Of a stretch of DNA of 63,584 nucleotides, positions 14,625 to 47,139 are shown piece after piece; the stretch's first letter is position 1, and every line of letters starts with the position of its first letter. The notes beneath the pieces were generated by a model that worked only from the letters and a program-made list of their open reading frames with translations, was not told the DNA's origin and ran no database searches. The position numbers and the translations under genes were made by a program. The DNA is from an uncultured Clostridia bacterium (GTDB lineage Bacteria > Bacillota > Clostridia > TANB77 > CAG-508): assembly GCA_947626025.1 (NCBI GenBank), contig CANQQQ010000003.1:1-63584 (forward strand). The letters are read 5' to 3'.

Positions 14625-15144
14625 CTAAACCTTATATTCTTTTAAAAGTCCTCGATATACTTCTTGTAATCCATATATTTTTAAAATTTTCTGGTCTTAC
14701 CGTCTCTGGCAGTCCAGTACTTATTTCCGCTTTCTCCATTAAATACTTTACAAATTCAGCACAATAAAATGATTGTTTCTGTATTATTTTTTTATGAACT
14801 CCTACAGCAAATAGTCCTATTATATTAAATTTATAATTTTTTCTATCTTTTTTTATTTGTTTTATCGTGTTTTTTATAATCTCATATTGCTCTTCTGTGA
14901 TCTCTAAAGAATATATGATAGCTATAGTCTTGTCAAATTTTTTAAATGTGCCCTTATCTATATATTCATGTACAAAACCTCCCCAAAAAGGATTATTAGG
15001 GTTTAACCTACCAAAGCTATACATTTTCTTTAACGCTATATCCAATGAAATTGAAGCATGAGAAACTTCATCTTTTGTGTAAGCTTTAATAATATGAGAT
15101 AACATCGTTCCTGTATGAGTTAATACTATATATATTTTTTTCAT
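14625..15144 (-). CDS. Permuted papain-like (YiiX/YaeF-type NlpC/P60) protein, possibly frameshifted near the C-terminus
   Basis: His (VSHASI) before Cys (FYCAEFV); start at ATG 15144 after GGAGA; reading-frame stop at 14632, alternative-frame tail GLQEVYRGLLKEYKV ends at 14625. Confidence 0.6.
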
Positions 15145-15248
15145 GCTTAAATAATCCATCTCCATTTTATACAAAATCTAAAATTCATTAGGTATTTATA
15201 TTATCATAAAAAGAAGTAATTATCAAGTTAATTACTTCTTTTTATAAA

Positions 15249-15488
15249 CTATTTATTATTTTTTATATATTTTACTACATCTCCTACAGTAACAATCTTT
15301 TCAGCATCTGCATCTGGGATTTCCATATCAAACTCTTCTTCTATATTCATTATTAACTCTACAATATCTAATGAATCTGCTTCTAAATCATCTACAAAAG
15401 TCGCTTCCTCTGTTACAATTTTCTCATCAATATCCAATTGATTTACTATAATATCTCTCAATTTTCCTAATATTTCGTTCTCGCTCAT
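15249..15488 (-). CDS. acpP: Acyl carrier protein
   Basis: [12 protein letters not shown] phosphopantetheine site; start set to the second ATG by RBS spacing. Confidence 0.96.
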
Positions 15489-15564
15489 CTTTACTATCAT
15501 TCCTTTCTTTATTTTTAGTGAAAAAAGTATGTAGTCTAATACAACACTTATTTTGCATCAAATA

Positions 15565-16338
15565 TTAAACTCCCATAATGTTATATCCACTGTCTGCATA
15601 TATAACTTGACCAGTTATAGCATCTGACATATCACTTAGTAAGAATGTTGCAACATTCCCTACTTGAGTTGTTGTTACATTTCTATGTAATGGTGATTTT
15701 TCTTCTACAACAGTTAAAATTGTTGAGAAGTCCTTTATTCCTTTTGCAGATAATGTTTTTATAGGACCCGCTGAAATTGCATTTACTCTTATACTTTCCT
15801 TACCTAAATTTTCTGCTAAATATCTAACACTTGCCTCTAATGCTGCTTTAGCAATTCCCATAACATTATAACCCTCTAATACTTTTGTTGAACCATGATA
15901 TGTTAAAGTTACTAAATTAGCATTATCATTTAGCATATCTAGTTCCTTTGCCATTCTTGTGCAAAGTACAAATGAGTAAGCACTTACATCTATAGCATGC
16001 GCATATCCTTCTTTACTTGTATATATAAAATCATTATGCAAGTCTTCTGTATTGGCATGTGCAATAGCATGAACTATACCATCTACTTTTCCATTTTCTT
16101 CTTTAATCTGTGAAAAAACTTTTCTAACTAAATCATCTTCTGAGGCACCATCTAATACGTAAGCCTTGCTCCCTTCAAATTCACTTATAAGTTCTTCTAT
16201 TTTATCCTTATTTTCTTCTCCCATATATGTAAAAATTAACTTTGCTCCATTATCATAAGCAGATTTTGCAATTCCATATGCAATACTCCACTTATTTCTT
16301 ATTCCCATAATTAATATTTTTTTATCCTTTAATAACAT
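15565..16338 (-). CDS. fabI: Enoyl-ACP reductase FabI
   Basis: SIAYGIA, YNVMGIAKAALE (Y-x6-K), RVNAISAGPIKTL. Confidence 0.93.
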   Translation of the reverse strand: MLLKDKKILIMGIRNKWSIAYGIAKSAYDNGAKLIFTYMGEENKDKIEELISEFEGSKAYVLDGASEDDLVRKVFSQIKEENGKVDGIVHAIAHANTEDLHNDFIYTSKEGYAHAIDVSAYSFVLCTRMAKELDMLNDNANLVTLTYHGSTKVLEGYNVMGIAKAALEASVRYLAENLGKESIRVNAISAGPIKTLSAKGIKDFSTILTVVEEKSPLHRNVTTTQVGNVATFLLSDMSDAITGQVIYADSGYNIMGV

Positions 16339-16348
16339 CTTATTCCTC

Positions 16349-17161
16349 CTATAACTTTATAAATTCTCCCATATTTCTAAATCGCTCATATCTGTTTTGT
16401 ACGATATATTCTACAGTATGTTTATTCAATTCTTCTATTGAAATCTTTATTTCTTTTTTTAAGTTGTTAACTATCTTTTTAAAACCTTCTTCATCATTTT
16501 CAATAGGTTCTTTTATTATTTTATCTATTACTTTTAGATTATATAAATCCTTTGCGGTTAATTTCATTTTCTCTGCCGCCTCTTTATACCTACTTGAATC
16601 TTTCCATAAAATACTACTATAGCCCTCTGGTGAAAGTATTGAATAAATTGCATTTTCTAGCATAATTACTTTATTTGCTACACCTATTGCTAAAGCACCC
16701 CCACTTGATCCTTCGCCAACTACTATTGAAATTATTGGAACTTTCAATTTAGCCATTTCGAACATTGATTTAGCAATAGCTTCACCTTGACCTCTTTCTT
16801 CTGCCCCAATTCCTGGATATGCTCCCTTTGTATCTATAAAAGTAATTACTGGTCTTTTAAATTTCTCAGCTTGCTTCATAAATCTTATTGCTTTTCTGTA
16901 GCTTTCTGGATTAGGCATTCCAAAGTTTCTCTCAATATTTTCCTTTGTTGTTCTTCCTTTTTGTTCTGCAATTATTGTAAAATTTTGTTCTCCAATCCTT
17001 GCTAAACCACATACTATTGCTTTATCATCTTTAAAATTTCTATCTCCATGTAATTCCATAAAATCATCAAATATCTTTTCGATATAATCAAGAGAGGTCT
17101 TCCTCTTAGGATTTCTTGCTATCTCAACTCTTTCCCATGCAGTAACTTTTTTATTCATCAC
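16349..17161 (-). CDS. accA: Acetyl-CoA carboxylase carboxyltransferase alpha
   Basis: [35 protein letters not shown]. Confidence 0.96.
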
Positions 17162-18011
17162 TTACCATACCTCCTTTGTTGAATTTTATTAATTTATAAA
17201 TTGTGTCCTTTAAGTCTTTTCTTTCTACTATCTTATCTATAAACCCATGTTCTAATAAAAATTCAGAGGTCTGGAAACCTTCTGGTAAAGATTCACCTAT
17301 AGTTTGTTCTATAACTCTTTGTCCTGCAAAGCCTATCATAGCATTTGGTTCTGCTAATATAATATCTCCTAGGCTTGCAAATGAAGCTGTAACTCCTCCA
17401 TAAGTTGGATCAGTTAGAACTGATATATATAATAGACCTGCTTCATCTAATTTTGTAAGTGCAGCAGTTGTTTTTGCCATTTGCATTAATGATATTATAC
17501 CTTCTTGCATCCTCGCTCCACCTGAAACAGAAAATATAATAAGTGGTAACTTTTTCTCTACTGCTTGCTCTATACTATATGTGATTTTTTCTCCTACTAC
17601 AATTCCCATACTTCCCATTAAAAATGCACTATCCATTATGCAAATCACTACTTTTTCTCCATTAATATTTCCTGTACCACAACTTACTGCTTCTTCAAGT
17701 CCTGTTTTTTCTCTTAATATTTTTAACTTTTTTGGATAATCCTCTAATTCTAGAGGATTAGTTGTTTCAATATTTATATCAAATCTCTCATAAGTTCCAT
17801 CATCTATTATAAGTTCTAATCTTTTTCCAATATGCATTCTAAAATAATGTCCACAATTTGGACAAATGTTTAAATTTTTTCTTACTGCCTCTTTATAAAT
17901 AATTTCCTTACAATTATCACATTTTATCCATTTGCCTATTGGTATATCTACATTGGTCTTTCTTTTTTTTATATTCTTTGTTTCTTGTTTTTTTATTTTA
18001 TCAACAATCAT
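17151..18011 (-). CDS. accD: Acetyl-CoA carboxylase carboxyltransferase beta
   Basis: C4 zinc ribbon, [24 protein letters not shown]. Confidence 0.96.
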
Positions 18012-18014
18012 TTT

Positions 18015-19379
18015 CTATTCCTCTTTCTTTATAGCTGGACTTTTTAGTATTTCACTTTCTATAAATGATGTATCAAAGTTTCCTCTAATAAAATTTGGAT
18101 TTCTTATTATATTAAATATAAAATCTATATTAGTATCAACACCATCGATAACTAATTCTTGTAGTGCCCTTTTCATTTTTGCTATTGCTTCATTTCGTGT
18201 TGCTCCATGTGTTATAATTTTTGCAATCATAGAATCATAATTAGGTGGTATTGTGTAACCATTGTATATTGCTGTATCTACTCTCACGCCATTGCCTCCT
18301 GGAAGATTTATTTCATTAATTTTTCCTGCACAAGGCATGAAATTTTTTATAGGGTTTTCCGCATTAATTCTACATTCTATAGAATGACCTTTAAACTCTA
18401 TATCTTTTTGCTTAAACTTTAATTCTTCTCCTGCTGCAATTCTTATTTGTTCTTTTACAATGTCTAAGCCCGTTCTCATTTCCGTTATAGGATGTTCAAC
18501 TTGAATTCTTGTATTCATTTCCATAAAATAAAAATTCTTATCATCATCTACTAAAAATTCTACAGTTCCACAACTTGTATATCCTGCAGTTTTTGCTGCC
18601 TTTACTGCTACATTTCCCATTTTATTTCTTAGCTTATCATCTATTATCGTTGATGGTGTTTCTTCTATTATTTTTTGATGTCTTCTTTGAATTGAACAAT
18701 CTCTTTCCCCTAAATGAACTACATTTCCATGCTCATCTGCCAATATTTGAATTTCAACATGTCTTGGATTCTTTATAAATTTTTCTATGTAAATTTCATC
18801 ATCATTAAATGAATTCTTTGCCTCTTGCTTTACTATATTGTAATTTGTTTCTAATTCATTATTATTATTTGCTATTCTAATGCCTTTCCCACCACCACCA
18901 GCTGCTGCTTTTAGCATAACAGGATAACCTATTTTTTCAGCAATTACTATTGCATCTTTTAATCCTTTTACGCTTCCATCTGATCCTGGTATAACTGGAA
19001 TACCTGCTTGTTTCATAATTTCTTTGCTATTTGATTTATTGCCTAATAAATTTATTACTTTTGAAGTAGGACCTATAAATTTTATATTAGATTCCTCACA
19101 TATTTTAGCAAATTCAGCATTTTCAGATAGAAATCCAAAGCCTGGATGAATGCTATCACTTCCTGTTACATATGCTGCTTCAATAATATTCTTTATATTT
19201 AAATAACTCTTTGTAGCTACTGCTGGTCCTATACAAATTGCTTCATCCGCTAAACGAGTATGTAATGCATCTTTATCTATATCAGAATAAACTGCAACAG
19301 TTTTAATATTCATTTCCTTACAAGCTCTAATAATGCGAACAGCAATCTCTCCTCTGTTTGCAATTAATATTTTATTCAT
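18015..19379 (-). CDS. accC: Biotin carboxylase
   Basis: KILIANRGEIA, HPGFGFLSEN, GGGGKG, EMNTRIQVEH; start trimmed to MNKIL. Confidence 0.97.
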   Translation of the reverse strand: MNKILIANRGEIAVRIIRACKEMNIKTVAVYSDIDKDALHTRLADEAICIGPAVATKSYLNIKNIIEAAYVTGSDSIHPGFGFLSENAEFAKICEESNIKFIGPTSKVINLLGNKSNSKEIMKQAGIPVIPGSDGSVKGLKDAIVIAEKIGYPVMLKAAAGGGGKGIRIANNNNELETNYNIVKQEAKNSFNDDEIYIEKFIKNPRHVEIQILADEHGNVVHLGERDCSIQRRHQKIIEETPSTIIDDKLRNKMGNVAVKAAKTAGYTSCGTVEFLVDDDKNFYFMEMNTRIQVEHPITEMRTGLDIVKEQIRIAAGEELKFKQKDIEFKGHSIECRINAENPIKNFMPCAGKINEINLPGGNGVRVDTAIYNGYTIPPNYDSMIAKIITHGATRNEAIAKMKRALQELVIDGVDTNIDFIFNIIRNPNFIRGNFDTSFIESEILKSPAIKKEE

Positions 19380-19416
19380 CTTAATATCACCCCTCTTTAT
19401 GGAAATAAACCTCATT

Positions 19417-19839
19417 TTAAACTAATGCAAATGTTAATTCACCTTTTGCTGCAACGACCCCATCAACTGTTGCTATTGCTTCTCCTACTCCTATTGGTCC
19501 TTTTCTTTTTATAATCTTGACTTCTAATTTTAATCTATCTCCTGGTACTACCACTTTCTTAAACTTCATTTTATCAATTCCACCAAATAAAGCATTTTTT
19601 CCTTTATTCTCTTCCATAGATAAAATTGCTACTGCCCCTGTTTGTGCAAGAGCTTCTGTTATTAGAACTCCTGGCATTATAGGATTTCCTGGAAAATGTC
19701 CTTTAAAGTACCATTCACTTGCATCTACATTTTTATATGCTATTGCACTTTCTCCTGGCTTATATTCTTCTACTTCATCTATCATTAAAAAAGGCTCTCT
19801 TTGTGGAATAATGTCTTTTATTTCATCTTTACCTAACAT
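19417..19839 (-). CDS. fabZ: 3-hydroxyacyl-ACP dehydratase
   Basis: PFLMID, FKGHFPGNPIMPGVLITEALAQ. Confidence 0.97.
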   Translation of the reverse strand: MLGKDEIKDIIPQREPFLMIDEVEEYKPGESAIAYKNVDASEWYFKGHFPGNPIMPGVLITEALAQTGAVAILSMEENKGKNALFGGIDKMKFKKVVVPGDRLKLEVKIIKRKGPIGVGEAIATVDGVVAAKGELTFALV

Positions 19840-19855
19840 TTTGATTTTCCTTTCT

Positions 19856-20281
19856 CTATTTTATTCTAAATAAAGGAGTTCCATATTCTACTATGTCTCC
19901 ATCTTTAACTAAGACTTCAACTACTTCTCCTGAAAATTCTGATTCAATTTCATTCATTAATTTCATTGCCTCTATTATGCAAAGTATTTCTCCTTTTTTT
20001 ACCATTTTTCCTACTTCAACATATGGTTCTGATGCTGGAGAAGGTTTTATATAAAATGTTCCAACCATTGGAGATTTTACTATATTTCCTACATCTTCTT
20101 TTACATCTATAAATTTTTCCTCTTGCTTAGCTTCTTGAATTTCTTTACTTACTACAATAGTATCTTGTTTTGTTTCTTTTCTCATACTAATTTTTGTACC
20201 ATCTGGAAAATCTATATCAATAGCTGTTAATTTAGAATTTCCCATATCATCCATTAATTTTTTTATTTTTTCATATTCCAT
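19856..20281 (-). CDS. accB: Biotin carboxyl carrier protein
   Basis: SPMVGTFY, EAMKLMN biotinylation motif. Confidence 0.97.
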   Translation of the reverse strand: MEYEKIKKLMDDMGNSKLTAIDIDFPDGTKISMRKETKQDTIVVSKEIQEAKQEEKFIDVKEDVGNIVKSPMVGTFYIKPSPASEPYVEVGKMVKKGEILCIIEAMKLMNEIESEFSGEVVEVLVKDGDIVEYGTPLFRIK

Positions 20282-20317
20282 AAATTATCTTCCCTTCTTG
20301 CTTAAAACTCAAAAAAT

Positions 20318-21562
20318 TTATTTTTCACTCATATATTTCTTTATGATTATGCATGCATTGTGTCCTCCAAATCCCAAAGAATTTGACATTACTATATTAA
20401 TATTTGCCTTTCTTAGTTCGTTAGGTACTATATCTAAATCACATTCTTCATCTTTTATTCTATAATTTATCGTTGCAGGTACTAATTGATCTTCGATTGC
20501 TTTAACACTAAGCACTGCTTCTACTCCCCCTGCTGCTCCTAATAAATGTCCAATATTTCCTTTGGTTGAACTTATCATTACTTTTTTGCTTGCATCACCT
20601 AAAGCTTTTTTGATAGCTAATGTTTCTGTAGAATCATTTAGATGTGTAGAAGTTCCGTGTGCATTTATATAATCTATATTTTCCGGTTTAATTTTTGCAT
20701 CTTCTAAAGCTCTAATCATTGCTTTTGCTCCTGCATTGCCTTCTGGATCTGGTGAAGTTATATGATATGCATCCGTAGTAGAGCCAAATCCTATAATCTC
20801 AGCATATATTTTAGCCCCTCTTGCTTTTGCATGTTCTAATTCCTCAAGTATAACCATTCCTGCGCCTTCTCCCATAACAAATCCGCTTCTTTCTTTATCA
20901 AAAGGGATACTTGCTCTTGTTTTGTCCGTTCCTGTATGTAAAGCTTTCATATTTTCAAAGCCTGCAATTCCAATTGGACATATTGAAGCTTCTGTTCCAC
21001 CTGCTATAATTGCATCTTCATATCCCTGTTTTATAGTTTTATATGCCTCTCCTATAGCATGTGTTGAAGAAGCACATGCTGTTACTATTGATACTGATTC
21101 TCCTTTAAATCCAAATTCTATAGCAATATTTCCTGCAGGCATATTGGCTATTGCCATAGGTATAAACATTGGAGAGACTCTATTATTACCTTTTACATAA
21201 TTTATCTCGCATTGTTCTTGGATTGTTGTTAGTCCTCCTATTCCAGAACTTACAAAAATTCCTACTCTATCATAATTTGTATTTTCTTTTGTTATTCCAC
21301 TATCTTTTACTGCTTCTCTTGCAGAAATAATCGCAAATTGAGATGACCTATCAAATCTTTTTACTTGCTTTGGTTCAAAATATTCTAATGGATTATAATT
21401 CTTAACTTCTGCTGCCAATGTTGTTTTAAAGTTTGAAGTATCAAATAAAGAAATCTTATCAATTCCACAAGTTTTATTTTCTATTCCTTCCCATGTTTCT
21501 GCTACATTTTTTCCTATTGGAGTTATTGCTCCTAAACCAGTAATTACAACTCTCTTTTCCAT
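20318..21562 (-). CDS. fabF: Beta-ketoacyl-ACP synthase II
   Basis: VVITGLG, TACASS, NAHGTST, SNSLGFGGHN; start trimmed to MEKR. Confidence 0.96.
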   Translation of the reverse strand: MEKRVVITGLGAITPIGKNVAETWEGIENKTCGIDKISLFDTSNFKTTLAAEVKNYNPLEYFEPKQVKRFDRSSQFAIISAREAVKDSGITKENTNYDRVGIFVSSGIGGLTTIQEQCEINYVKGNNRVSPMFIPMAIANMPAGNIAIEFGFKGESVSIVTACASSTHAIGEAYKTIKQGYEDAIIAGGTEASICPIGIAGFENMKALHTGTDKTRASIPFDKERSGFVMGEGAGMVILEELEHAKARGAKIYAEIIGFGSTTDAYHITSPDPEGNAGAKAMIRALEDAKIKPENIDYINAHGTSTHLNDSTETLAIKKALGDASKKVMISSTKGNIGHLLGAAGGVEAVLSVKAIEDQLVPATINYRIKDEECDLDIVPNELRKANINIVMSNSLGFGGHNACIIIKKYMSEK

Positions 21563-21605
21563 ATCGTTTTCCTTTCTTTTTATCATTTTATGTATAATAT
21601 AAATA

Positions 21606-22340
21606 TTACATTACCATTCCGCCGTCTACATTAATAACTTGACCAGTTATATATGAACTATCTTCTGAAGCTAAAAACTTTACTAAATTTGCAACATCTT
21701 CTACTTTTCCCATTCTTCTTAATGGAATTGCTTTTGCAATTTCTTCTTTAATTTCGTCTTTTAATACTCCTGTCATATCTGTCTCTATAAATCCAGGTGC
21801 TACTGCATTTACCAATATATTTCTTGATGCCAGCTCTTTAGCAAGACTCTTTGTAAAGCCAATTATCCCTGCTTTCGAAGCAGAATAATTTGTTTGACCA
21901 GCATTACCTACAACTCCAACAACAGATGATAAATTTATTATTCTTCCCGAACGTGCTTTCATCATATATTGGATAACATTTTTGGTTACATTAAATGTTC
22001 CAACTAGGTTTATATCAATTACTTCTTGGAAATCTTCTTTTTTCATTCTCATTAATAGCATATCTTTAGTAATTCCTGCATTATTTACTAATACATCAAT
22101 TTTTCCGAATTTATCTATAATTTCTTTTATCATTCTTTCACAATCTTCAAAATTAGAGACATCTCCTTGTACTGTTAAACACCTACCCCCCTCTGTTTCA
22201 ATCTCTTTTTTTGTATTTGTTAAAGCATCATTTTCTGTTCTATAATTAACTGCAATATCATATCCATCTTTTGCAAGTGTAATTGCTATTTGTTTTCCTA
22301 TTCCGCGAGTACCTCCAGTTATAAATGCAATCTTATTCAT
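21606..22340 (-). CDS. fabG: 3-oxoacyl-ACP reductase
   Basis: TGGTRGIG, NNAGITKD, NYSASKAG; position within the fab cluster. Confidence 0.95.
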   Translation of the reverse strand: MNKIAFITGGTRGIGKQIAITLAKDGYDIAVNYRTENDALTNTKKEIETEGGRCLTVQGDVSNFEDCERMIKEIIDKFGKIDVLVNNAGITKDMLLMRMKKEDFQEVIDINLVGTFNVTKNVIQYMMKARSGRIINLSSVVGVVGNAGQTNYSASKAGIIGFTKSLAKELASRNILVNAVAPGFIETDMTGVLKDEIKEEIAKAIPLRRMGKVEDVANLVKFLASEDSSYITGQVINVDGGMVM

Positions 22341-23292
22341 TGTTTTTCCTCCCTCTATATTCATTTACTATATTTATCACGTTTTTCAAGCTTTCTACAT
22401 TATTTATATTTAATATTTCTATTTCATTACTACTTTGCATTCTTTTCACAAAACCTGATAATGTCTTTCCTGGTCCTATTTCTATAAATGTGTCAATCCC
22501 TTCTTTTAACATTAATTCCAATGTTTTTGAAAATCTAACTGGATTAATAATGTGCTTTGCCAAAATATCTCTAATATCGTCATCATCTTTATAAAATTCT
22601 CCATCTAAATTTTTAATTACTTTGGTACTAAATTTATTAATTGTAACTTTTTCAAGTTCTTCTCTTAAAGCTTTTGAACTTTCTTTTAATTTTTCTGTGT
22701 GGAATGGTCCTGCTGTATTTAAAACTAAAACTTTTTTTGCTCCCATCTCTTTCGCGATCTTTTCAGCTTCCATTATCGCTTCTTTCTCTCCAGAAATTGC
22801 AATCTGCCCTTTGCAATTATAATTGGCTGGAACTACAAAACCTGATTTTACTTTGCTACAAACATCTTGGACTTGTTCATCATTCATACCTATAATCGCT
22901 GCCATTTGCCAGTCTCCATTAGGTAAAAGGTTTTGCATATATTCTCCTCTTTTTTGAACAAGCTTAATTCCTTCTTCTAATGAAAATACATTGCTATTAA
23001 TTAATGCGGTATACTCTCCTAAACTTAAACCTGCTGATATATCTGGTTTTATATTAATTTTCTTAAGTATATTCAAAATTGCTAAGCTCATTGTAAGTAT
23101 TGCAATCTGTGTATATTTTGTTTCATTTAATACTTCTTCTGGTCCTTCAAAAGATATTTTTGCTATATCTATACCTGTTATTTCCTTCACTCTATCATAT
23201 ATTTCTTTTGCCTCTTTATATTCTTCATATATGTCCTTTCCCATTCCTACACTCTGTGCTCCCTGTCCAGGAAATAAAAATCCTACTTTCAT
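22333..23292 (-). CDS. fabD: Malonyl-CoA:ACP transacylase
   Basis: FPGQGAQ, GLSLGEY (GxSxG), GPFHT, EIGPG. Confidence 0.96.
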   Translation of the reverse strand: MKVGFLFPGQGAQSVGMGKDIYEEYKEAKEIYDRVKEITGIDIAKISFEGPEEVLNETKYTQIAILTMSLAILNILKKINIKPDISAGLSLGEYTALINSNVFSLEEGIKLVQKRGEYMQNLLPNGDWQMAAIIGMNDEQVQDVCSKVKSGFVVPANYNCKGQIAISGEKEAIMEAEKIAKEMGAKKVLVLNTAGPFHTEKLKESSKALREELEKVTINKFSTKVIKNLDGEFYKDDDDIRDILAKHIINPVRFSKTLELMLKEGIDTFIEIGPGKTLSGFVKRMQSSNEIEILNINNVESLKNVINIVNEYRGRKNNE

Positions 23293-23293
23293 T

Positions 23294-23872
23294 CTAATTA
23301 CCCATCCTTCTTAATAATTCTTCTTCAAACCTATTACAAAATTCTACTATAAACTCTTGTGCATTTATTTCTATGTTAAACTCTTTTTTTATTGATGTTG
23401 CAATGTTTTTTATATCTTTTGTGAAAATTTGTTTATTAGTATTTATGCCAATTCCTACTACTAAATATTTAACAATCTGTCCTTTTAAAACAGTCTCTGT
23501 TAAAATTCCTCCTAATTTTTTTCCTTTAAATACTATATCATTTGGTTCTTTTATTGATAATTTTATTCCATATTTGTCATTAAAAATATCTACTATGATT
23601 TTTGCGATTTCTATAGTTATTCCATTCAAAATATTTATATTACAATTCAATTCTATAAAAAAGGAAAAAGCTACATTTCCGCCATCATCCGTATGCCACA
23701 CTCTTCCATGTGTTCCTTTTCCACTCGTCTGGATATTTGCTATAACTACAGTTCCATTTCTTATAGTTTTATTATGTATTTTTCTCCATATCTCATTTTG
23801 AGTTGAATCTATTTTTTCATAATAAATAATAGTCTTACCTATAAAACTAGTTTTTAATTTTTGTAATTGCAT
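23294..23872 (-). CDS. birA: Biotin-protein ligase, short form with no N-terminal HTH
   Basis: IDSTQ, QTSGKGTHGRVW, KEPND, KLGGILTE, GIGIN. Confidence 0.9.
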   Translation of the reverse strand: MQLQKLKTSFIGKTIIYYEKIDSTQNEIWRKIHNKTIRNGTVVIANIQTSGKGTHGRVWHTDDGGNVAFSFFIELNCNINILNGITIEIAKIIVDIFNDKYGIKLSIKEPNDIVFKGKKLGGILTETVLKGQIVKYLVVGIGINTNKQIFTKDIKNIATSIKKEFNIEINAQEFIVEFCNRFEEELLRRMGN

Positions 23873-25574
23873 CTAAATTTTCCTGCCTTTTTATTTTATT
23901 TGTCGTAGTCTTAATTAATGGTTGTTCTGTCAATATCATTCCCCTAATAGATTTGTAACGTGGCATTGTTTGATTTATTTCTTTAATCTTTTTTGATAAA
24001 GCATTGTAAATTTCTTCATCTGTTTCAACTTTGTAAACTTCTTTAACTGTTTCTTTATCAAATACAATTTTTACATTTATTTTAATGTTATCCTTATCTT
24101 CCGTTTGTTGTTTCCCAAAAATAAATGATTCTGTTACACCTTCTATTTTATTTACTAAATTCTCCATCTCTTCTGGAAAAATGTTTTTTCCATTTTTTAA
24201 AACTATTACACTTTTCTTTCTTCCACAGATAAATATGTATCCTTCTTCATCAATTTTAGCTAAATCACCTGTATGGAACCATCCATTTTCTATTGCTTCT
24301 TTCGTAGCTTCTTTATTACCATAGTATTCAAGCATTACACTTGGTCCTTTGACAAGTAGTTCTCCGATTCCCTCTTTATCTCTATCTGCTAATTTCACTT
24401 TAATACTTGGAACTGCCTTTCCAATAGAACCTATTCTATTGTATTTATTGCTTCCAATTCCTACGACTGGAGATGTTTCTGTTAGTCCATAACCTTGCAC
24501 TAAGTTTAGTCCTAGTAATCTATATTTTTCTTCTATCTTTGCATCTAATGCTGCTGCACCACTTATAAATAATTTAACTTTTCCACCTAGCATGTCATGT
24601 ATTTCCTTAAATATTTCTTTCTTTTTCTCCATAGAAGCATCTCTATATTTTTCTTCTTCTATTAATATTTTCTCTACTTTTCCTTGTTTTTCCAATTTTT
24701 TTCTAATAATTCCAAAAATTCTTTCATATATAGCTGGTACACAAGCCATTACAGAAACTTGATATTCCTTTAAGTTTTCCACTACACGTCTAATGCCATC
24801 ACAAAATACCGTTTGTGCTCCTTTATATAATGAAAATAAGAAACCTACTGTACATTCGAAAACATGATGTATTGGTAATACTGAAAGCAGTGTATCGTTT
24901 GAATTAACATCTAAAACGCTCGCTATATCCATCAGATTTGTGCATATATTTTTATGAGATAATGCAACTACTTTTGACTTTGATGTAGTTCCTGAAGTAA
25001 AAAGCATAATACTCATGTCATTTGGGTTAATCTTAGCATCTATAAATTCTCTATTTCCATCCTCAATTAATTTTTGCCCTCGTTCAATTAATTCTTGTTC
25101 AGAATATACTCCCTCAGTATGAGATACTAAATCCATTGCTATTAAGTGCTTTAATTTATTTTTCTCACTGTATTTAATTCTCTCAATTGCCTCAGCATAT
25201 TTTTTAGAATAAAAAATAGCTTCGATTTCTGATCTTGCTATTAAATCTTCTAATTCATTTTCTGGTAAGGATTTATCTAATGGTACTACTACTCCAGTTC
25301 CACAGACTATTGATAAATATGCTATCTCCCATTCGTACCTATTTTCACCTATAACTGCTATTCTTTTTCCTTTTAATCCTAAATTTATTAATGCAGTTCC
25401 TAACCTATCAACCATATCCCTTACTTCTTTATGTGTAAATATCTTATATTTTCCCTCTGCAACTCTAATTTTATATGCTGGTCTTTCTGCATATAATTCT
25501 TTAGTCTTATTTAACATATCTTTTAAATCTGTTATTTCAATATAATCATATAATCTCTCGCTCACTTTTCTCAT
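23847..25574 (-). CDS. Long-chain acyl-AMP ligase (acyl-CoA or acyl-ACP synthetase), copy 2
   Basis: FTSGTTSKSK, GYGLTE, GWFHTGD, GRKKSVIVLKNGKNIFPEE, TTTNKIKR. Confidence 0.9.
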   Translation of the reverse strand: MRKVSERLYDYIEITDLKDMLNKTKELYAERPAYKIRVAEGKYKIFTHKEVRDMVDRLGTALINLGLKGKRIAVIGENRYEWEIAYLSIVCGTGVVVPLDKSLPENELEDLIARSEIEAIFYSKKYAEAIERIKYSEKNKLKHLIAMDLVSHTEGVYSEQELIERGQKLIEDGNREFIDAKINPNDMSIMLFTSGTTSKSKVVALSHKNICTNLMDIASVLDVNSNDTLLSVLPIHHVFECTVGFLFSLYKGAQTVFCDGIRRVVENLKEYQVSVMACVPAIYERIFGIIRKKLEKQGKVEKILIEEEKYRDASMEKKKEIFKEIHDMLGGKVKLFISGAAALDAKIEEKYRLLGLNLVQGYGLTETSPVVGIGSNKYNRIGSIGKAVPSIKVKLADRDKEGIGELLVKGPSVMLEYYGNKEATKEAIENGWFHTGDLAKIDEEGYIFICGRKKSVIVLKNGKNIFPEEMENLVNKIEGVTESFIFGKQQTEDKDNIKINVKIVFDKETVKEVYKVETDEEIYNALSKKIKEINQTMPRYKSIRGMILTEQPLIKTTTNKIKRQENLDAITKIKN

Positions 25575-25691
25575 CCTTTAACTTTTTATTATAATAATAT
25601 TTATATCATATATTTGGTAAATAAAGATTTAGACTGGGTGGTCAGTTTAAAACATATGAACTTGTTACAGAACTAAAATCAAATTTTAAAT

Positions 25692-25733
25692 AATAGATGT
25701 AGAGCACGGTAAAGACCGAGCTCTACATCTATT
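25692..25733. terminator. Long hairpin at the stop of ligase copy 1
   Basis: 14-bp arms aatagatgtagagc / gctctacatctatt plus inner cggt-aaag-accg. Confidence 0.6.
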
Positions 25734-27453
25734 ATTTATTCAATATCAATTTCATCTCCTCTTGTCTCTTTACTTTTTTAGTTGTAGTTTTTATTAATTC
25801 CTCACTAGTTAAAATCATATGCTGGATATGCTTATATCTTGGAAATGTCTTGTTTATCTCTTTTATTTGATCCCATATAATACTATATAATTCTTGTTCT
25901 GTTTTTCCTTCATATTTTTCTTTTGCCGTTTCTTTATTATATACAATCTTTACTGATAATTTTACATCATTTTTATCCTTTTCATCAGGTAAACCAAATA
26001 CCATAGATTCTTCTACTAATTCTAATCTATTTATCAAAGTCTCGAGTTCTTCTGGGAATACTTTTTTACCATTTTTTAAAACTATCATGTTTTTATTTCT
26101 TCCTGTTATAAATAAGAAACCATCTTTATCAAAATATCCTAAATCACCTGTATAGAACCAACCGTCTTTTAAAACTTCAGATGTTTCTTTTGGCATTTCA
26201 TAATATCCTAACATTACATTAGGACCTTTTACTCTTATTTCTCCTATATCATTTTCATCTTTGTTAACAATTTCAATAGTGTCATTAAGCATTGGAACAC
26301 CTACTGATCCATTTTTTTTGTTCCACTCATTTTCAGCACATATTACTGGTGCAGTTTCCGTTAAACCATATCCTTGAGCTGTCTTTATTCCAAAATCATT
26401 AAATCCTTTTAGGCTTATTGGATCTGCTGGTGCCCCTCCTGTGATAACAAATCTTAATTGTCCGCCTAGTGCATCTATAACTTGTTTAAATAATTTTCTT
26501 CTAATGTCTATATGTAGTTTCATAAGTAAGTTGCTAATTTTTAAAGCAATTCTTATTAACCTTGTTTTACCTTGTTTTTCAATTTCTTTCATTATTGTTT
26601 TATGTATTGCTTCAGTTAAAACAGGCACTCCTACAAATATTGTTACCTTATATTCATTTAAGTTTTGTTTAATGTATCTTAACCCATCTGGGAATACCGT
26701 TTTAACTCCCTGTGCTAGCATTAGTACCATACAAGTTGAACCAAATATATGATGGAAAGGTAAAAATGCAATGTTTGTATCTGTAGCTCTAATATCTTCT
26801 AGACATTGCAATGCGTAAACATTTGAAGCTATATTTCTCTGTGATAACATTACTGCTTTAGATTTTGAAGTTGTTCCTGAAGTAAATAGTAATATATTCA
26901 TTTCGTTTTCTGCTATTTCAACATTTAAATATTCTTTATTTCCTTCTTTTAATAATTTATCCCCTTGGCTTATAAGTTCTTTTACGGATTTGAATTCATC
27001 TATTTCACTCATACAAATATATTCTTTTAATTGTGTCCTGCCATTTTCTTTAATTTCTTGTATTCTCTCTGTTAATTTTTCATCAAAAATGATACACTCC
27101 GCTCCACTTCTAATCAGTGAATTTTCAAGCTCTTCATATTGTAAATCTTTATCTAAAGGTACTGATATAATTCCGCCTAATAGGTTAGACATATGTGATA
27201 AAACCCACTCATACCTGTTTCTTCCAATTATAGCAATTCTTTTTCCTTTAAATCCCATTTTATATAAGCTAGTACCAAGTTTATTAATATCTTCTAATAA
27301 TCTTTTATATGTAATATTTTCATAAGTAATTTTATTTTTTTCTTGATGTTTTATAACAAATGCTATATTGTCACTATACTTATTTGCAGATTCGCGAATT
27401 ATCTCTCTTATATCTTTAAATTCCTTAGCTTCAAATCTTTTTTTACTTTCCAT
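25732..27453 (-). CDS. Long-chain acyl-AMP ligase (acyl-CoA or acyl-ACP synthetase), copy 1
   Basis: Same adenylation motifs (FTSGTTSKSK, GYGLTE, GWFYTGD, GRNKNMIVLKNGK); clear paralog of 23847..25574. Confidence 0.9.
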   Translation of the reverse strand: MESKKRFEAKEFKDIREIIRESANKYSDNIAFVIKHQEKNKITYENITYKRLLEDINKLGTSLYKMGFKGKRIAIIGRNRYEWVLSHMSNLLGGIISVPLDKDLQYEELENSLIRSGAECIIFDEKLTERIQEIKENGRTQLKEYICMSEIDEFKSVKELISQGDKLLKEGNKEYLNVEIAENEMNILLFTSGTTSKSKAVMLSQRNIASNVYALQCLEDIRATDTNIAFLPFHHIFGSTCMVLMLAQGVKTVFPDGLRYIKQNLNEYKVTIFVGVPVLTEAIHKTIMKEIEKQGKTRLIRIALKISNLLMKLHIDIRRKLFKQVIDALGGQLRFVITGGAPADPISLKGFNDFGIKTAQGYGLTETAPVICAENEWNKKNGSVGVPMLNDTIEIVNKDENDIGEIRVKGPNVMLGYYEMPKETSEVLKDGWFYTGDLGYFDKDGFLFITGRNKNMIVLKNGKKVFPEELETLINRLELVEESMVFGLPDEKDKNDVKLSVKIVYNKETAKEKYEGKTEQELYSIIWDQIKEINKTFPRYKHIQHMILTSEELIKTTTKKVKRQEEMKLILNK

Positions 27454-27540
27454 ATTAACCTCAACTTATCAAATTATATATTTCTATTTATATCACATAA
27501 AAGTGAAATAATAATTGAACTGAGTAGTCAGTTTAATTAT

Positions 27541-29550
27541 TTATATAGTAATTTTTTCTAAGTCTTTTTCTTTTACCATCTCGCATATTAAATCTGCTGT
27601 TTTTTCTACTCCTAATGTTGCACTATTAATAGTAATATCATAATTTTCACTGTTACTCCACTCTTGATCTGTATAATGTTTATAGTGGTTTGCTCTTAAT
27701 TTATTAATCTTGTTAATTTCTTTTTTTGCGTTCTCTTTCTTAATTCCATAAATTTCTGTAACTCTTTTAATTTTGTCTTCCATATCACTATATATGAACA
27801 CCTTTATAAGATTTTCTCTATCTTTTAAGATAAAATCTGCACATCTACCTATTATAACGCATGATTCTTTATCAGCTAACTTCTTAATCATCTCTGACTC
27901 TTTAATAAACAATTCGTCTGAATAATTTAATCCAAAATAATATCCATTATTTAAGTTATCTAAAGTTTCTCTTTTCTGCTCATTATTCTCGATATATTCT
28001 TCTGATAAACCTGTATCCTCAGCTACTTTTTCTATAAGTTCTTTATCATATAATTTAATTCCTAACTTATCAGCAATTAATCTTCCTATGTATCTTCCTC
28101 CAGATCCATATTCTCTTGATACTGTAATTATAATATGTTTCTTTAATCTATTATCTAAATTTGTATCATCAACTATCGCATTACTCTTTGTTGTTACATT
28201 ATTTAAATTTTTGACTTCAAATATTAATAACACTACCGCAAGAATAAATGCTGTTCCATCTGCAACAGGACCAGCAGATAAAACTCCGTTAATTCCAAAT
28301 GCTCTACTTAAAACTAGCATTGATGGCACTAAAAATAAAATTTGTCTTGATAATGATAAGATTACACTTTTTATGCTTTTTCCTATTGCTTGGAAGAATA
28401 TTCCTGAAGGTATCTGTATACCATTACAAATGCATAATAGTAAATACGTCCTAAATGCTAAACACGCAAAATCCATATAAAGTTCATCGCCACTACCAAA
28501 TATAGCAATTAACTTATCAGGTATTGTTTGGAATAATATAAATGCGATTGTACTTATTACAGTGCTTAGTCCCAATACTATCTTTAATGCTTGTTTTACT
28601 CTTTCAAATTTTCTAGCTCCATAATTATAACCAAAAATTGGTTGAGAACCTGCTGCAATTCCAAGTATAATGCTATTCAAGATTTGACTAATCTTCATAA
28701 CAATTCCTAGTACTGTTATTGGTATTTCAGAACCATATTTAGACTCAAGTCCATATTTAGCAAGTAAGTTGTTCTCTACAGAAACTACAACCACAAAACT
28801 CATTTGTGTTACAAAACTACTGATTCCTAATGTTGATACTCTTCTCCATACATTAAATTTAATTTTTAGATTTTCTCTATTCAATGTTATTGACTTGAAT
28901 TTTCTTATATATGCTATATTAAGTACAAAAGTAAGAAATTGACTAAGTACAGTTGCAATCGCTGCTCCCTCTACCCCCATCTTACATACAAATATCAAAA
29001 TAGGATCTAATATAGTATTTAAAATAGCACCTAAAACCATAGATATCATTGAATATCTTGGACTTCCATCTGCTCTAATGATAGAATTTAACGTAGTTCC
29101 TATCATCATGAATGGTAACCCTATTGCGATAATTCTTCCATAGCCTATAGCATAATCTCTTAAAGCATCTGTACAACCAAATATATTTAATAATGGTTGC
29201 AAAAATATTAATGTAAAAATGCAAAAAATAATTGCTATTATAGCAGATATTATAATTCCATTTCCTACACCCTTAGCAGCCTCATCTTTTTTCTTTTCTC
29301 CTAACTTTAAGCTTAAATATGCAGATGCACCATCTCCAAACATTAATGAAAATGCTAAACAAATCATAACTAATGGGAATACTACATTAGTAGCTCCATT
29401 TCCTAAATATCCTACTCCCCATCCAATAAATATTTGATCCACAATATTATATAAAGAATTTACTAATAATGATATAATACATGGAATTGAAAATTTTGCA
29501 ATTAATTTTCCTATTTTTTCAGTTCCTAATATATTTTCTTCTTTTTCCAC
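27541..29550 (-). CDS. MATE efflux transporter fused to a cytidylate-kinase-like C-terminal domain
   Basis: YNIVDQIFIG and RADGSP MATE motifs; C-terminal ITVSREYGSGGR P-loop-like motif and VIIGRCAD. Confidence 0.9.
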   Translation of the reverse strand: MEKEENILGTEKIGKLIAKFSIPCIISLLVNSLYNIVDQIFIGWGVGYLGNGATNVVFPLVMICLAFSLMFGDGASAYLSLKLGEKKKDEAAKGVGNGIIISAIIAIIFCIFTLIFLQPLLNIFGCTDALRDYAIGYGRIIAIGLPFMMIGTTLNSIIRADGSPRYSMISMVLGAILNTILDPILIFVCKMGVEGAAIATVLSQFLTFVLNIAYIRKFKSITLNRENLKIKFNVWRRVSTLGISSFVTQMSFVVVVSVENNLLAKYGLESKYGSEIPITVLGIVMKISQILNSIILGIAAGSQPIFGYNYGARKFERVKQALKIVLGLSTVISTIAFILFQTIPDKLIAIFGSGDELYMDFACLAFRTYLLLCICNGIQIPSGIFFQAIGKSIKSVILSLSRQILFLVPSMLVLSRAFGINGVLSAGPVADGTAFILAVVLLIFEVKNLNNVTTKSNAIVDDTNLDNRLKKHIIITVSREYGSGGRYIGRLIADKLGIKLYDKELIEKVAEDTGLSEEYIENNEQKRETLDNLNNGYYFGLNYSDELFIKESEMIKKLADKESCVIIGRCADFILKDRENLIKVFIYSDMEDKIKRVTEIYGIKKENAKKEINKINKLRANHYKHYTDQEWSNSENYDITINSATLGVEKTADLICEMVKEKDLEKITI

Positions 29551-37702: not shown

Positions 37703-39013
37703 TTAAAAATGTCGTCCAATCTTGCCAGTTTTTATTGCAATATCTTCAAAAATATCTGTCTCCTCATCTTCATCATTACTTAGCATAAAATTATTGTCTT
37801 TGTCATCTTCTTCTGGTCCTTCAATTTCTTTTCTTAATTTATATGAAATAATCATATAAATTATTGAAATTAAACCTAACAAACAAGTAATTACTATTAG
37901 TATAATTTTCTTTGAATCACGTATTGTGTCTAAAAAGTTTTTATCATTGTCAGTATTTTCTACTGATCCTACTATTTCTTCTTCCACTGTGTTATACACA
38001 TCGATAACATATTCTATTACCTTATCGCCTAATGCTACAGTAATTTTTACTGTATTATTTCCTTCTTGCAAATCTGTTGCTCCCTCTATATTAATTGTAG
38101 CTTCAGAATTAGTTGCTATTGCATCAATTTCAAGTTCTTTCATATTTTGCACATTTGCTGTATATTTATATGTTTCAGGACTAAATTCTGGATCTAATTC
38201 AACATCTTTTATTACCAATTCACTTAATAGCAATTTTTCTTCTTCTGATGTTGGTACTACAGTTTCATCAATTACATTTGGTATTGTTGATTCTTTTGCT
38301 AGTCTTATAATATTTACATTATATGTTTTCTTTGTTCCATTTTCAGCAGTTACAGTAATTGAAAATTTATTTGTTTGTCCTTCTACTAGTGATTTCGTAC
38401 CTGTTCCACTTACAGTCGCTTTGCTATCATTTTTTACTGCTGAAATTTTTATTGAACTAACACTATTTGCTACTGTATGAGTAATCGTATTATTTAATGA
38501 CGAACCTGAAAATTTCTTATCTCCAACAGTTATTGATTTTAATGTAGCATCACTGGATTGTTTTGTGTCTCCTGGTGTTGTTGTATTCGGTGTCTGTGTT
38601 GATGGTGCTCTTACAGTCACTGTGGCCGTTGCGGATGAAGAAGCAACGGCGTTTCCTTCTTCATCCGCCATATCTTGTGAAATAAATACTACTTTATATA
38701 CTTTTGTTTCTGTTACTATTGGTGCTGTAAAAGTGTATGTTGCGATTCCTGAGGTTTTATTGTTAGATGCTGAAAAAGCAACTAATGTACCATTTACTGT
38801 TCCGCCAGATGCACTTTTAAAAGTTAATCCTCCATTAGATGTTATATTAATAGCGCCAGATGCCACAGGTTCTTGACTACTTACAGTTATTGTTACAGTT
38901 GCTCCTGAATCTACTGTAATGTCATTAGTTTTTATTCTTGCGAATGAATGTGTACATATACCTATCGTAAATAATATGCTTAATAAAAAAATGTATTTTA
39001 TTTTCTTAGCCAT
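37703..39013 (-). CDS. Membrane-anchored protein: cohesin-like beta-sandwich, two cadherin-like beta-sandwich domains, C-terminal TM
   Basis: Signal peptide; alternating beta-strand N-domain; SSDATLKSI..TVTAENGTKKTY cadherin-like signature; TM helix IILIVITCLLGLISIIYMII; the cohesin call is inference. Confidence 0.7.
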   Translation of the reverse strand: MAKKIKYIFLLSILFTIGICTHSFARIKTNDITVDSGATVTITVSSQEPVASGAINITSNGGLTFKSASGGTVNGTLVAFSASNNKTSGIATYTFTAPIVTETKVYKVVFISQDMADEEGNAVASSSATATVTVRAPSTQTPNTTTPGDTKQSSDATLKSITVGDKKFSGSSLNNTITHTVANSVSSIKISAVKNDSKATVSGTGTKSLVEGQTNKFSITVTAENGTKKTYNVNIIRLAKESTIPNVIDETVVPTSEEEKLLLSELVIKDVELDPEFSPETYKYTANVQNMKELEIDAIATNSEATINIEGATDLQEGNNTVKITVALGDKVIEYVIDVYNTVEEEIVGSVENTDNDKNFLDTIRDSKKIILIVITCLLGLISIIYMIISYKLRKEIEGPEEDDKDNNFMLSNDEDEETDIFEDIAIKTGKIGRHF

Positions 39014-39023
39014 ACTAGCCTCC

Positions 39024-43632: not shown

Positions 43633-44244
43633 TTACTTAACTGAAATATGTATATTATCTGCATTTGCTCCTAATTCTCGTGATACGATATTTTGGATTT
43701 GAGCAATTTCTTCCTGTGATAAAGTTTCTTTTCCTATTATTACACTAATACTTGTATCATTTACAAATATTATACACTTATTAAATCCTTTAGCTAATAA
43801 TAAATTCTCAGATATCATTATTGCATTTTGTATCTGACTTATCTTAGAAATCTCCTGTGTTGCAACAGCTTTTTGTTCTCCTGATACATTTGGATTTTCT
43901 ATTATCGCTTGATAATTCTCTATTGTTTGTGAATACATATTTGTTCTATCTAATTTTGCTGATACAAAATATTGATCTTCTGTGTTTGTGTTTTCATTAT
44001 TTTCATCACTTTGATTAAAAACCTCTTGAGTTTCTGTTTGATTATCGCTTACTAATTTAGCATCTCCCAGTTTCGCAATTTCATCATTTTCATTTGAAAT
44101 ATTCTGACTATCTATGTCTTGAGTAGCGACTTCTGAGCTTATATCTTGAGTTTTATTTCTACCAATATAATCTAAATATCCTGCTGTTACCAGCATTAAT
44201 GCTATAATCAAAATCGTCAACTCATTTTTTTTAATTATTTTCAT
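43633..44244 (-). CDS. spoIIIAH: Stage III sporulation protein AH
   Basis: N-terminal TM helix, YF..AKLDR, ENLLLAKGF; last gene of the operon. Confidence 0.9.
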   Translation of the reverse strand: MKIIKKNELTILIIALMLVTAGYLDYIGRNKTQDISSEVATQDIDSQNISNENDEIAKLGDAKLVSDNQTETQEVFNQSDENNENTNTEDQYFVSAKLDRTNMYSQTIENYQAIIENPNVSGEQKAVATQEISKISQIQNAIMISENLLLAKGFNKCIIFVNDTSISVIIGKETLSQEEIAQIQNIVSRELGANADNIHISVK

Positions 44245-44316
44245 ATACAATCATTCCTTTCTTTTTTACCCAATATACTCATTAAATTTGAGAAAATCGT
44301 TTCTATTATTTTCAAA

Positions 44317-44919
44317 TTATTGATTCATCTCAAAAACTTGTACCTTATAAGTAGCAAGTCCTGTAATAGCTTCTACTGCTGATACAATATTACTTTTTAC
44401 TGTGGCATTAGAAGCTCCTTCTGCAATTACTATTGCTCCTTTTACTATTGGATTAATAACTGTTTGCGTTTCTATAGTTGTTCCATTTGAGTAAATAATT
44501 TCTGTTGTTTTATCGGTTTCTTCTATTATTCTAGTACCTCCATCAGAATCATTTTCTTGTGTAGATGATGTTTTCGAAGTTTCATTTTGCATAGGCACAA
44601 TTTCACTTCCTTTTGAATATGTGATCATTACACTTACTTTTCCTACTCCTTCCATTTTAGATAATATCCCTTCTAGTTTTGCTTCTAATTCATCTTCTGT
44701 ACTTTCATTGTCATTACTTACATAATCTGCTAATGTTTTATATCCCAAGCTGTCTTCTTTTGTTTCATCTTTATTCTTTGAATCTTCTTTCCAGATTGTA
44801 TTTATTGCAATTAATGTTATTATTAGAACTACTATAAATATAATCAAATTCTCTATTTTTCTCTTATCTGCTTTTCCTTGGTATTTTGATTTTATCATTT
44901 GCATTTTTTCTTTTAGCAT
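44317..44919 (-). CDS. spoIIIAG: Stage III sporulation protein AG
   Basis: LEGILSKMEGVGKVSVMITY, VKGAIVIAEGA, AVEAITG. Confidence 0.92.
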   Translation of the reverse strand: MLKEKMQMIKSKYQGKADKRKIENLIIFIVVLIITLIAINTIWKEDSKNKDETKEDSLGYKTLADYVSNDNESTEDELEAKLEGILSKMEGVGKVSVMITYSKGSEIVPMQNETSKTSSTQENDSDGGTRIIEETDKTTEIIYSNGTTIETQTVINPIVKGAIVIAEGASNATVKSNIVSAVEAITGLATYKVQVFEMNQ

Positions 44920-44932
44920 GCAACTCTCCTCC

Positions 44933-45547: not shown

Positions 45548-45562
45548 TGTCTTTCTCCTTCC

Positions 45563-47091: not shown

Positions 47092-47139
47092 ATTTACTAT
47101 CATTCCTTTACAAGGTACAAATCAAATTAAAAAGAATTG

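Follow-up and report, generated by a model that had tools for sequence, protein, structure and literature searches.

Introduction

In Firmicutes, phospholipid synthesis normally uses acyl-acyl carrier protein (acyl-ACP) or acyl-phosphate, not acyl-coenzyme A (acyl-CoA), and in Bacillus subtilis the genes for LcfA and the acyl-CoA sensor FadR are adjacent. The FadR operator of B. halodurans has been described as GATGAATGAATACTCATTCAT (PMC5397183). In type II fatty acid synthesis (FASII), FabF and FabB can self-prime via decarboxylation of malonyl-ACP (PMC10869286), and MadA carries out such decarboxylative priming in Proteobacteria (PMC8666670); thus, a FASII that lacks the starter synthase FabH (β-ketoacyl-ACP synthase (KAS) III) needs no ligase. 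In Enterococcus faecalis, some de novo synthesis persists in a ΔfabH mutant, and medium-chain acids, which are elongated, rescue this mutant (PMC13372179); likewise, exogenous short and medium acids are elongated by this species (PMC11586512). Here, we report on two paralogous adenylate-forming ligases of the long-chain type, lig1 and lig2, and the FASII genes that follow them in a 63,584-nt stretch of DNA from an uncultured Clostridia bacterium (contig CANQQQ010000003.1, positions 1 to 63,584), referred to below as the window.

The window and its relatives, which are metagenome-assembled genomes of uncultured Clostridia including Clostridium sp. CAG:793 and Ca. Scatovivens, probably belong to the GTDB order TANB77. 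The window has a GC content of 28%, carries nearly every gene on the minus strand, and matched DNA runs of a rabbit gut metagenome. Low metabolic independence has been described for TANB77 (bioRxiv 10.1101/2024.12.11.627901); the papers on this order that we found contain nothing on lipids, and we found no description of the present arrangement in the searchable literature. The themes that it combines, i.e. scavenging by acyl-ACP synthetases, a FadR-type regulon and FabH-independent FASII, are already known.

We propose, with a probability of about 0.55, that the two ligases belong to a lipid-acquisition regulon of low-GC, spore-forming gut Clostridia, in which they convert scavenged fatty acids, probably to acyl-ACP, and thereby supply phospholipid synthesis and, optionally, elongation by FabF.

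Results

The initial annotation had read the cluster, in order of transcription, as lig1, lig2, birA, fabD, fabG, fabF, accB, fabZ, accC, accD, accA, fabI and acpP; NCBIfam and Pfam scans returned the same genes, all on the minus strand, in the same order and at the same coordinates (Table 1). Both ligases match PF00501 and PF23562 above the gathering scores, as do members of the long-chain fatty-acid ligase branch of the ANL superfamily (225 and 39 bits for lig1, 238 and 33 bits for lig2; cut-offs 29.9 and 20.8). In an alignment of the two, the core motifs are intact, i.e. the P-loop TSGTTSKSK, YGLTET, TGD, the GRxK hinge and the C-terminal catalytic Lys; moreover, the residues of the adenylation and thioester-forming motifs are invariant among nine lig2 orthologues.

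The best NCBIfam match of both ligases is PRK06187 (263 and 261 bits vs a cut-off of 476); the scores are 182 bits for MenE (vs 330) and 178-186 bits for the FadD model PRK08974 (vs 884). Among solved structures, a lig2 profile scores highest (142-148 bits) with luciferases and with CoA ligases for malonyl, oxalyl and fatty-acyl substrates. NCBIfam and Pfam scans of lig1 and lig2 detected no fused acyltransferase domain, and the bifunctional model PRK08633 was matched only over positions ~899-1088 of 1147 (144-147 bits vs a cut-off of 1221). An identity as malonyl-CoA synthetase or MenE was rejected on domain architecture, length and sub-threshold scores.

For comparison, we collected 160 related loci (~2.5 Mb), 80 from a genome scan with lig1 as the query (80 species-level loci, 65-88% identity) and 80 from a metagenome scan with a lig2 alignment (64-77% identity). 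A conserved palindrome, ACTGAC-N4-CAGT, precedes both ligase genes. We counted 121 copies of its core, ACTG-N6-CAGT, in the related DNA (2.55 Mb). The stretches of 260 nt that precede ligase genes make up 1.8% of this DNA and contain 94 of the copies; the enrichment upstream of both ligases is roughly 190-fold. The core was found upstream of 60 of 91 lig2 orthologues and 34 of 81 lig1 orthologues, at a median distance of 87 nt from the ligase gene in the related loci. Every intergenic match with 0-1 mismatch in the lig1-centred set lies just upstream of a ligase gene, as do 8 of the 10 such sites in the lig2-centred set. In the window, a -10-like element, TGATATAAAT, follows the operators 22-24 nt downstream (~22 nt for lig1, ~24 nt for lig2). 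Counts within the window are unremarkable (3 matches vs 0.9 expected), so the signal rests on conservation across species. The initial annotation was right that no FabT or FapR gene is part of the cluster, and no other regulator gene lies in it; the conserved operator at both ligase genes nevertheless indicates that the cluster is not unregulated.

In 16 related loci, the gene directly preceding lig1 or lig2 encodes a TetR-family protein of ~190 aa, and the operator is located between the two genes. The encoded protein matches PF00440, the N-terminal helix-turn-helix; its top NCBIfam match is the Bacillus-type FadR NF053878 (69-73 bits vs a cut-off of 200), and its best characterised PDB relatives are the FadR structures of B. 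halodurans and B. subtilis (5gp9, 3whb and 1vi0; E ~3e-15). The window site AACTGA-CTAC-TCAGTT is, like the B. halodurans site AATGA-ATAC-TCATT, a FadR-box-type palindrome upstream of its predicted targets, and the two share the core TGA-nTAC-TCA. The predicted, operator-bearing targets are the ligase genes and the FASII/acetyl-CoA carboxylase (ACC) operon, not β-oxidation genes as in the FadR regulon.

The two ligase genes differ in their linkage to FASII, the presence of which was judged within the fetched flanks of up to 10 kb. Of the 72 loci with sequence downstream of lig2, 61 have birA-fabD directly after it; where this sequence extends to 9 kb or more (34 loci), the complete set of ten genes from birA to fabI follows in 29. 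Therefore, lig2 is the FASII-linked ligase. By contrast, only 17 of 80 lig1 loci have FASII genes within the flanks. In these, lig1 is located directly before lig2 (10 loci), a few genes off (L005, L041, L046), after fabI/acpP (L016, L022, L033) or several genes downstream of fabI-acpP (L019). The remaining 63 lig1 loci have no FASII genes nearby, and 24 of them have complete 10 kb flanks on both sides. Accordingly, the linkage expected from the initial annotation is conserved in relatives for lig2 and not for lig1, and the two-ligase head seen in the window is a minority arrangement. Further ligase paralogues are encoded in L063, L074, L080, L108, L123 and L127. An additional gene of the short-chain dehydrogenase/reductase (SDR) type, 37% identical to FabG, lies between fabI and acpP in L082 (~19940-20660), L084 and L089.

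A terminator-like hairpin overlaps the lig1 stop codon (46 nt, -28.9 kcal/mol, z = -8.4; none of 200 shuffles was equally stable) and is followed by a U-rich run; since, in addition, lig2 has its own promoter region, lig1 appears to form a separate transcription unit. Thus, lig1 looks monocistronic, and the genes from lig2 to acpP look like a single 12-gene operon that is closed by a second hairpin. The proposal that two ligases head the cluster thus appears to hold for lig2, as the predicted first gene of this operon, and not for lig1.

The ligase genes persist where the FASII genes do not. In Ca. Scatovivens (L066), lig2 is followed after an 18-nt gap by an ACP gene and then by lig1, with unrelated genes on both flanks; this ACP is 64% identical to AcpP of the window. 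The order is the one left if birA to fabI are removed from lig2-...-fabI-acpP-lig1, a parent order implied by L016 (birA...fabI-acpP-lig1) and L022/L033 (lig2...fabI-lig1). In a human-gut species, three independent metagenome assemblies (L127, L129, L131) carry an identical birA frameshift. Two of them, L127 and L131, represent strains that differ at 48 positions over 9.4 kb (99.5% identity) and have further frameshifts in common in accC, accD and accA; lig2 is intact, and lig2, fabD, fabG, fabF, accB and fabZ can still be read through. The ACC and BirA genes of this species appear to be pseudogenes. In the species of L120, L162 and L163, only accD-accA-fabI is left, with 58-59% identity to the genes of the window; it is flanked by toxin-antitoxin genes, [FeFe]-hydrogenase genes and a phage-integrase island, and a solitary lig2 lies 8 kb away beside yebC; one contig of this species reaches 1.22 Mb. 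As the ligases are intact where FASII is frameshifted, reduced or non-adjacent, their role cannot be FASII priming alone. In total, the lig2-birA-fabD linkage, the lineage-wide operator on both genes and the lig2-ACP-lig1 cassette support the suggested functional tie between the ligases and both ACP and FASII.

The initial annotation had pointed to a cluster without fabH, fabK, plsX, FabT and FapR, and NCBIfam and Pfam scans, together with tblastn for FabH and PlsX, extended this to the whole 63.6 kb window. Neighbouring genes from lig2 to acpP overlap or sit at most 64 nt apart, leaving insufficient space for a hidden fabH. Moreover, fabH is absent from all of the ~80 FASII clusters of the lineage, and tblastn probes with Escherichia coli FabH and PlsX gave no match in the 160 related loci (2.5 Mb). 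PlsX, which is expected to exist, was missed as well; therefore, the 2.5 Mb sample is not exhaustive and does not prove that the genomes lack fabH.

Two other ways of starting FASII were considered and rejected. A FabY-like initiating KAS does not fit, FabF being a standard 422-aa KAS II. A MadA/MadB-like decarboxylase was rejected because the hot-dog protein that relatives encode close to lig1 resembles thioesterases of the YbgC/FadM type, not YiiD_C, and is absent from the window. This thioesterase-like protein (~140 aa) is encoded within a few genes of lig1 in L014, L016, L022, L033, L041, L050, L055, L063 and L070.

Table 1. Features of the ligase/FASII locus in order of transcription; positions are those of the window.
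Feature	Position	Strand	Description
Operator 1	27518..27533	.	Perfect 16-bp palindrome AACTGAGTAGTCAGTT, 65 nt upstream of lig1 start
lig1	25732..27453	-	Adenylate-forming fatty-acid ligase, long-chain type, PF00501 + PF23562, 573 aa
lig1 terminator-like hairpin	25677..25735	-	Stem 25690-25735
Operator 2	25633..25648	-	AAACTGACCACCCAGT, ~58 nt upstream of lig2
lig2	23847..25574	-	Paralogue of lig1, 41% identical, 575 aa
birA	23294..23872	-	Short biotin-protein ligase, 192 aa, TIGR00121
fabD	22333..23292	-	Malonyl-CoA:ACP transacylase; TIGR00128, 307.6 bits (cut-off 260.9)
fabG	21606..22364	-	3-Oxoacyl-ACP reductase; TIGR01830, 358 bits (cut-off 297.75)
fabF	20318..21586	-	KAS II, sole β-ketoacyl-ACP synthase of the cluster; TIGR03150, 605 bits (cut-off 493.75)
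accB	19856..20281	-	Biotin carboxyl carrier protein; NCBIfam
fabZ	19417..19839	-	3-Hydroxyacyl-ACP dehydratase; NCBIfam
accC	18015..19415	-	Biotin carboxylase; NCBIfam
accD	17151..18011	-	Carboxyltransferase β subunit; NCBIfam
accA	16349..17161	-	Carboxyltransferase α subunit; NCBIfam
fabI	15565..16338	-	Enoyl-ACP reductase (SDR type, not FabK); best matches are FabI models
acpP	15249..15500	-	ACP; DSL phosphopantetheine site present
Operon-closing terminator-like hairpin	15204..15247	-	-18.7 kcal/mol, z = -6.5
hyp180	14632..15174	-	Conserved protein, ~170-200 aa; invariant His28 and Cys127 (FYCAEF motif)

The FASII, ACC and ACP genes reached their curated NCBIfam cut-offs, except for BirA and FabI. 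FabI stays below all FabI cut-offs, its top score being 311.9 bits vs 370. For BirA, the only model passed is TIGR00121, which covers the catalytic domain and was matched over profile positions 2-168 of 235; PRK05935, a short type, was matched over positions 3-178 of 190. BirA has the catalytic domain without the usual C-terminal cap. The mean length of BirA is 192 aa in a cluster of 15 members (14 relatives and the window), and the short form is, therefore, not a truncation artefact. The 5' end of birA overlaps the 3' end of lig2 by 26 nt. The true start of lig2 is probably the GTG at 25565, because the orthologues begin with MS.xLY.

The protein encoded downstream of acpP, hyp180, follows acpP or lig1 in the window and in L005, L016, L019, L022 and L033, and homologues lie near, not adjacent to, a ligase gene in L008 and L055. 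It had no Pfam, NCBIfam or PDB match, and a structure model from the single sequence was unusable (predicted local distance difference test score of 43). It may be a permuted papain-like hydrolase or an acyltransferase, and its membership of the ligase/FASII system is uncertain.

Immediately upstream of lig1 (27541-29550, minus strand) lies a gene for a 669-aa protein in which a MATE efflux transporter (residues 1-450) is fused to a cytidylate-kinase-like domain, PF13189 (474-644); a GH25-Ddl-Alr-MATE-lig1 block was found in nine related loci, with only Alr-MATE-lig1 in L008. According to Pfam, the rest of the window holds housekeeping and sporulation genes only (ileS, clpXP, tig, groEL, mutS, ssb, greA, the spoIIIA operon and spoIVA). 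The spoIIIA operon (AA, AE, AF and AH detected) and spoIVA are located at 43633-48822 and 54185-55690, and the uncultured lineage appears to be a spore former. At 37703-40685 (minus strand), two adjacent genes encode surface-type proteins, one with a cadherin-like domain and the other with SH3_3 and a type I dockerin; this pair hints at a cellulosome-like attachment system in a small-genome lineage.

Discussion

Because the ligases share a conserved operator and stay intact where synthesis genes decay, they look like a scavenging route first. The most economical reading is a scavenging regulon that comprises the ligases and ACP together with the operator and a TetR protein of the FadR-like kind, with an optional attached FASII elongation module without a starter synthase. 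The ligases would activate free fatty acids taken from the gut and, at about even odds, pass the acyl group to the phosphopantetheine of AcpP, the alternative acceptor being CoA; ACP is favoured by its repeated adjacency to the ligases and by the embedding of lig2 in an ACP-dependent operon. Long acyl-ACPs would go directly into phospholipid synthesis, whereas shorter ones could serve as substrates for elongation, with FabF, FabG, FabZ and FabI using malonyl-ACP supplied by AccABCD, BirA and FabD. A FadR-like TetR repressor encoded elsewhere in the genome may bind the palindrome and respond to a long-chain acyl thioester; as the same palindrome precedes lig1 and the lig2-...-acpP unit, such binding would make the two units one regulon. 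The ligases appear to be the conserved core; the elongation module has no KAS III in the cluster, seems to be dispensable in the lineage and appears to be disappearing from some relatives. That acyl-ACP made by the ligases primes FASII is a possible consequence of this arrangement, not its defining function.

Several observations weigh against this scavenging regulon. The scores of lig1 and lig2 lie below every curated NCBIfam cut-off, and the sequence places them in the long-chain fatty-acid branch without separating ACP from CoA as the acceptor, or one chain length from another. The structures of the acyl-ACP synthetase AasS of Vibrio harveyi (8hsy/8jyl) rank only ~50th among the matches of lig2, with 89.6 bits, below CoA ligases and luciferases. 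The TetR gene is not in the window; adjacency and motif resemblance are what point to binding of its product to the operator, and its nearest characterised relatives sense acyl-CoA, which would favour CoA ligase activity. Finally, the loss of FASII in relatives was scored on 10 kb flanks, and the genes could lie elsewhere in those genomes.

Among the alternatives, CoA ligase activity is the main rival, although we consider it unlikely. Here, the ligases would be ordinary long-chain acyl-CoA synthetases, analogues of LcfA and FadD, in a Bacillus-like FadR regulon; acyl-CoA would be the ligand of the TetR protein and would feed acyltransferases, or a KAS III encoded elsewhere, with no direct loading of ACP. 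The best family matches of the ligases are indeed long-chain-fatty-acid-CoA ligase models and the nearest solved structures are CoA ligases, but all family matches are far below the curated cut-offs (e.g. 263 vs 476 bits). The linked regulator most resembles the acyl-CoA sensor FadR, its operator resembles the FadR box, and it adjoins lig1 in relatives as fadR adjoins lcfA in B. subtilis; CoA therefore remains a candidate acceptor. However, β-oxidation genes were not seen in the fetched loci, as far as covered by recurrent neighbour clusters and sampled Pfam scans, and acyl-CoA is not what Firmicute phospholipid synthesis normally uses. Moreover, ACP genes repeatedly adjoin the ligases, up to the 18-nt spacing of the lig2-ACP-lig1 cassette, and lig2 sits inside the operon of an ACP-dependent pathway.

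The replacement of FabH put forward in the initial annotation, taken in its strict form, ranks next, and we regard it as a plausible special case of low probability. It holds that the genome lacks FabH, that the ligases are short- and medium-chain acyl-ACP synthetases that act as obligatory primers for FabF, and that the paralogues split the chain lengths between them. The lack of fabH in the window, in ~80 FASII clusters and in 2.5 Mb of lineage DNA agrees with it, though the gene may lie elsewhere in the genome, just as the expected PlsX was not sampled. That lig2 occupies the place where Firmicute clusters have regulator-fabH-acpP-fabK, and that the operator upstream of lig2 puts a ligase and the full elongation set in one transcription unit, also agrees with it, and the rescue of the ΔfabH mutant (PMC13372179) and the elongation of exogenous acids (PMC11586512) in E. 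faecalis provide precedent. By contrast, relatives with frameshifted ACC and BirA genes or without adjacent FASII still have intact ligases, lig1 is unlinked to FASII in most species, the C-terminal PF23562 domain is of the long-chain type, and self-priming by FabF/FabB (PMC10869286) or MadA (PMC8666670) makes a ligase unnecessary.

A fortuitous adjacency of non-lipid ligases, e.g. for aromatic or dicarboxylic acids or malonyl-CoA synthesis, is very improbable: a general but weak resemblance to models of malonyl-CoA synthetase, MenE and feruloyl-CoA synthetase and the highly variable context of lig1 would suit it, but lig2-birA-fabD is kept in most loci at 64-77% identity, the enriched operator is shared by both ligases, an ACP gene lies between them in L066, a FadR-like regulator is linked to them, and PF23562 and a length of ~575 aa do not fit enzymes of the MatB or MenE type.

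If the ligases load ACP, this Firmicute lineage would take up exogenous fatty acids via adenylating acyl-ACP synthetases and not via FakAB-PlsX, which is regarded as the Gram-positive norm, and would also provide a natural FASII that runs with no starter synthase linked to it. Together, the operator and the TetR protein constitute a directly testable regulon in which the expression of FASII would be coupled to the scavenging of fatty acids. The stepwise erosion of FASII beside intact ligases suggests that members of the clade depend on external fatty acids; such a dependence would be a lead for cultivation media for a prevalent, so far uncultured clade and would bear on predicting resistance to FASII-targeted antibiotics. 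In a bolder version, which is speculative, a whole order of gut Clostridia would lack FabH, and possibly Fak, and would build its membranes from gut fatty acids loaded on ACP by ligases of the long-chain acyl-CoA synthetase type, with FASII as an elongation module only that is being lost in several species; if so, fatty-acid dependence would be one reason why the clade has never been cultured.

Comparison with known systems

The role proposed here is alike to that of V. harveyi AasS, Neisseria AasN and Chlamydia AasC, which load scavenged acids on ACP and render FASII partly or wholly dispensable (PMC12086093, PMC11271967). However, lig1 and lig2 have no specific sequence relationship to AasS (lig2 profile, 90 bits for 8hsy vs 148 bits for luciferases/CoA ligases), and they lack the fused acyltransferase of E. 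coli Aas and AasC. As in the entry of exogenous acids in Lactobacillales, acids would become acyl-ACP, FabF would elongate them and FabH would be bypassed (PMC11586512, PMC13372179); in Lactobacillales, by contrast, this involves fatty acid kinase and PlsX, not an adenylating ligase, fabH is native and the bypass occurs only in mutants. MadA/YiiD, self-priming FabB and Pseudomonas aeruginosa FabY likewise start FASII without a canonical KAS III (PMC8666670, PMC10869286), whereas the window has no MadA-like or FabY-like gene and its sole KAS is the standard FabF.

The Bacillus FadR (YsiA)-lcfA pair resembles the relatives described here in that a TetR gene adjoins a long-chain ligase gene and in the core of the palindrome; it differs in that the TetR protein reported here scores far below the FadR cut-off and in that the predicted targets are the ligases and FASII/ACC, not β-oxidation. 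The canonical Firmicute FASII operon has the identical core order fabD-fabG-fabF-accB-fabZ-accC-accD-accA. Its head, however, is regulator-fabH-acpP-fabK, whereas in the window lig2-birA is at the head and fabI and acpP are at the tail, FabI stands in place of FabK, and there is no MarR or FapR gene, the regulator being encoded elsewhere.

The cyanobacterial and plant Aas enzymes (slr1609, AAE15) presumably have their broad domain type in common with lig1 and lig2. Cyanobacterial Aas and plant AAE15/16, acyl-ACP synthetases of the long-chain type with a role in recycling free fatty acids, are, like the ligases, stand-alone proteins of ~570-700 aa in the long-chain acyl-CoA synthetase branch; in both cases, the route would take free fatty acids into lipid synthesis that depends on ACP, where they can be elongated (PMC10114076). 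In cyanobacteria, however, the aas gene is not part of a FASII operon and FabH is kept, whereas in the lineage described here at least two paralogues share an operator.

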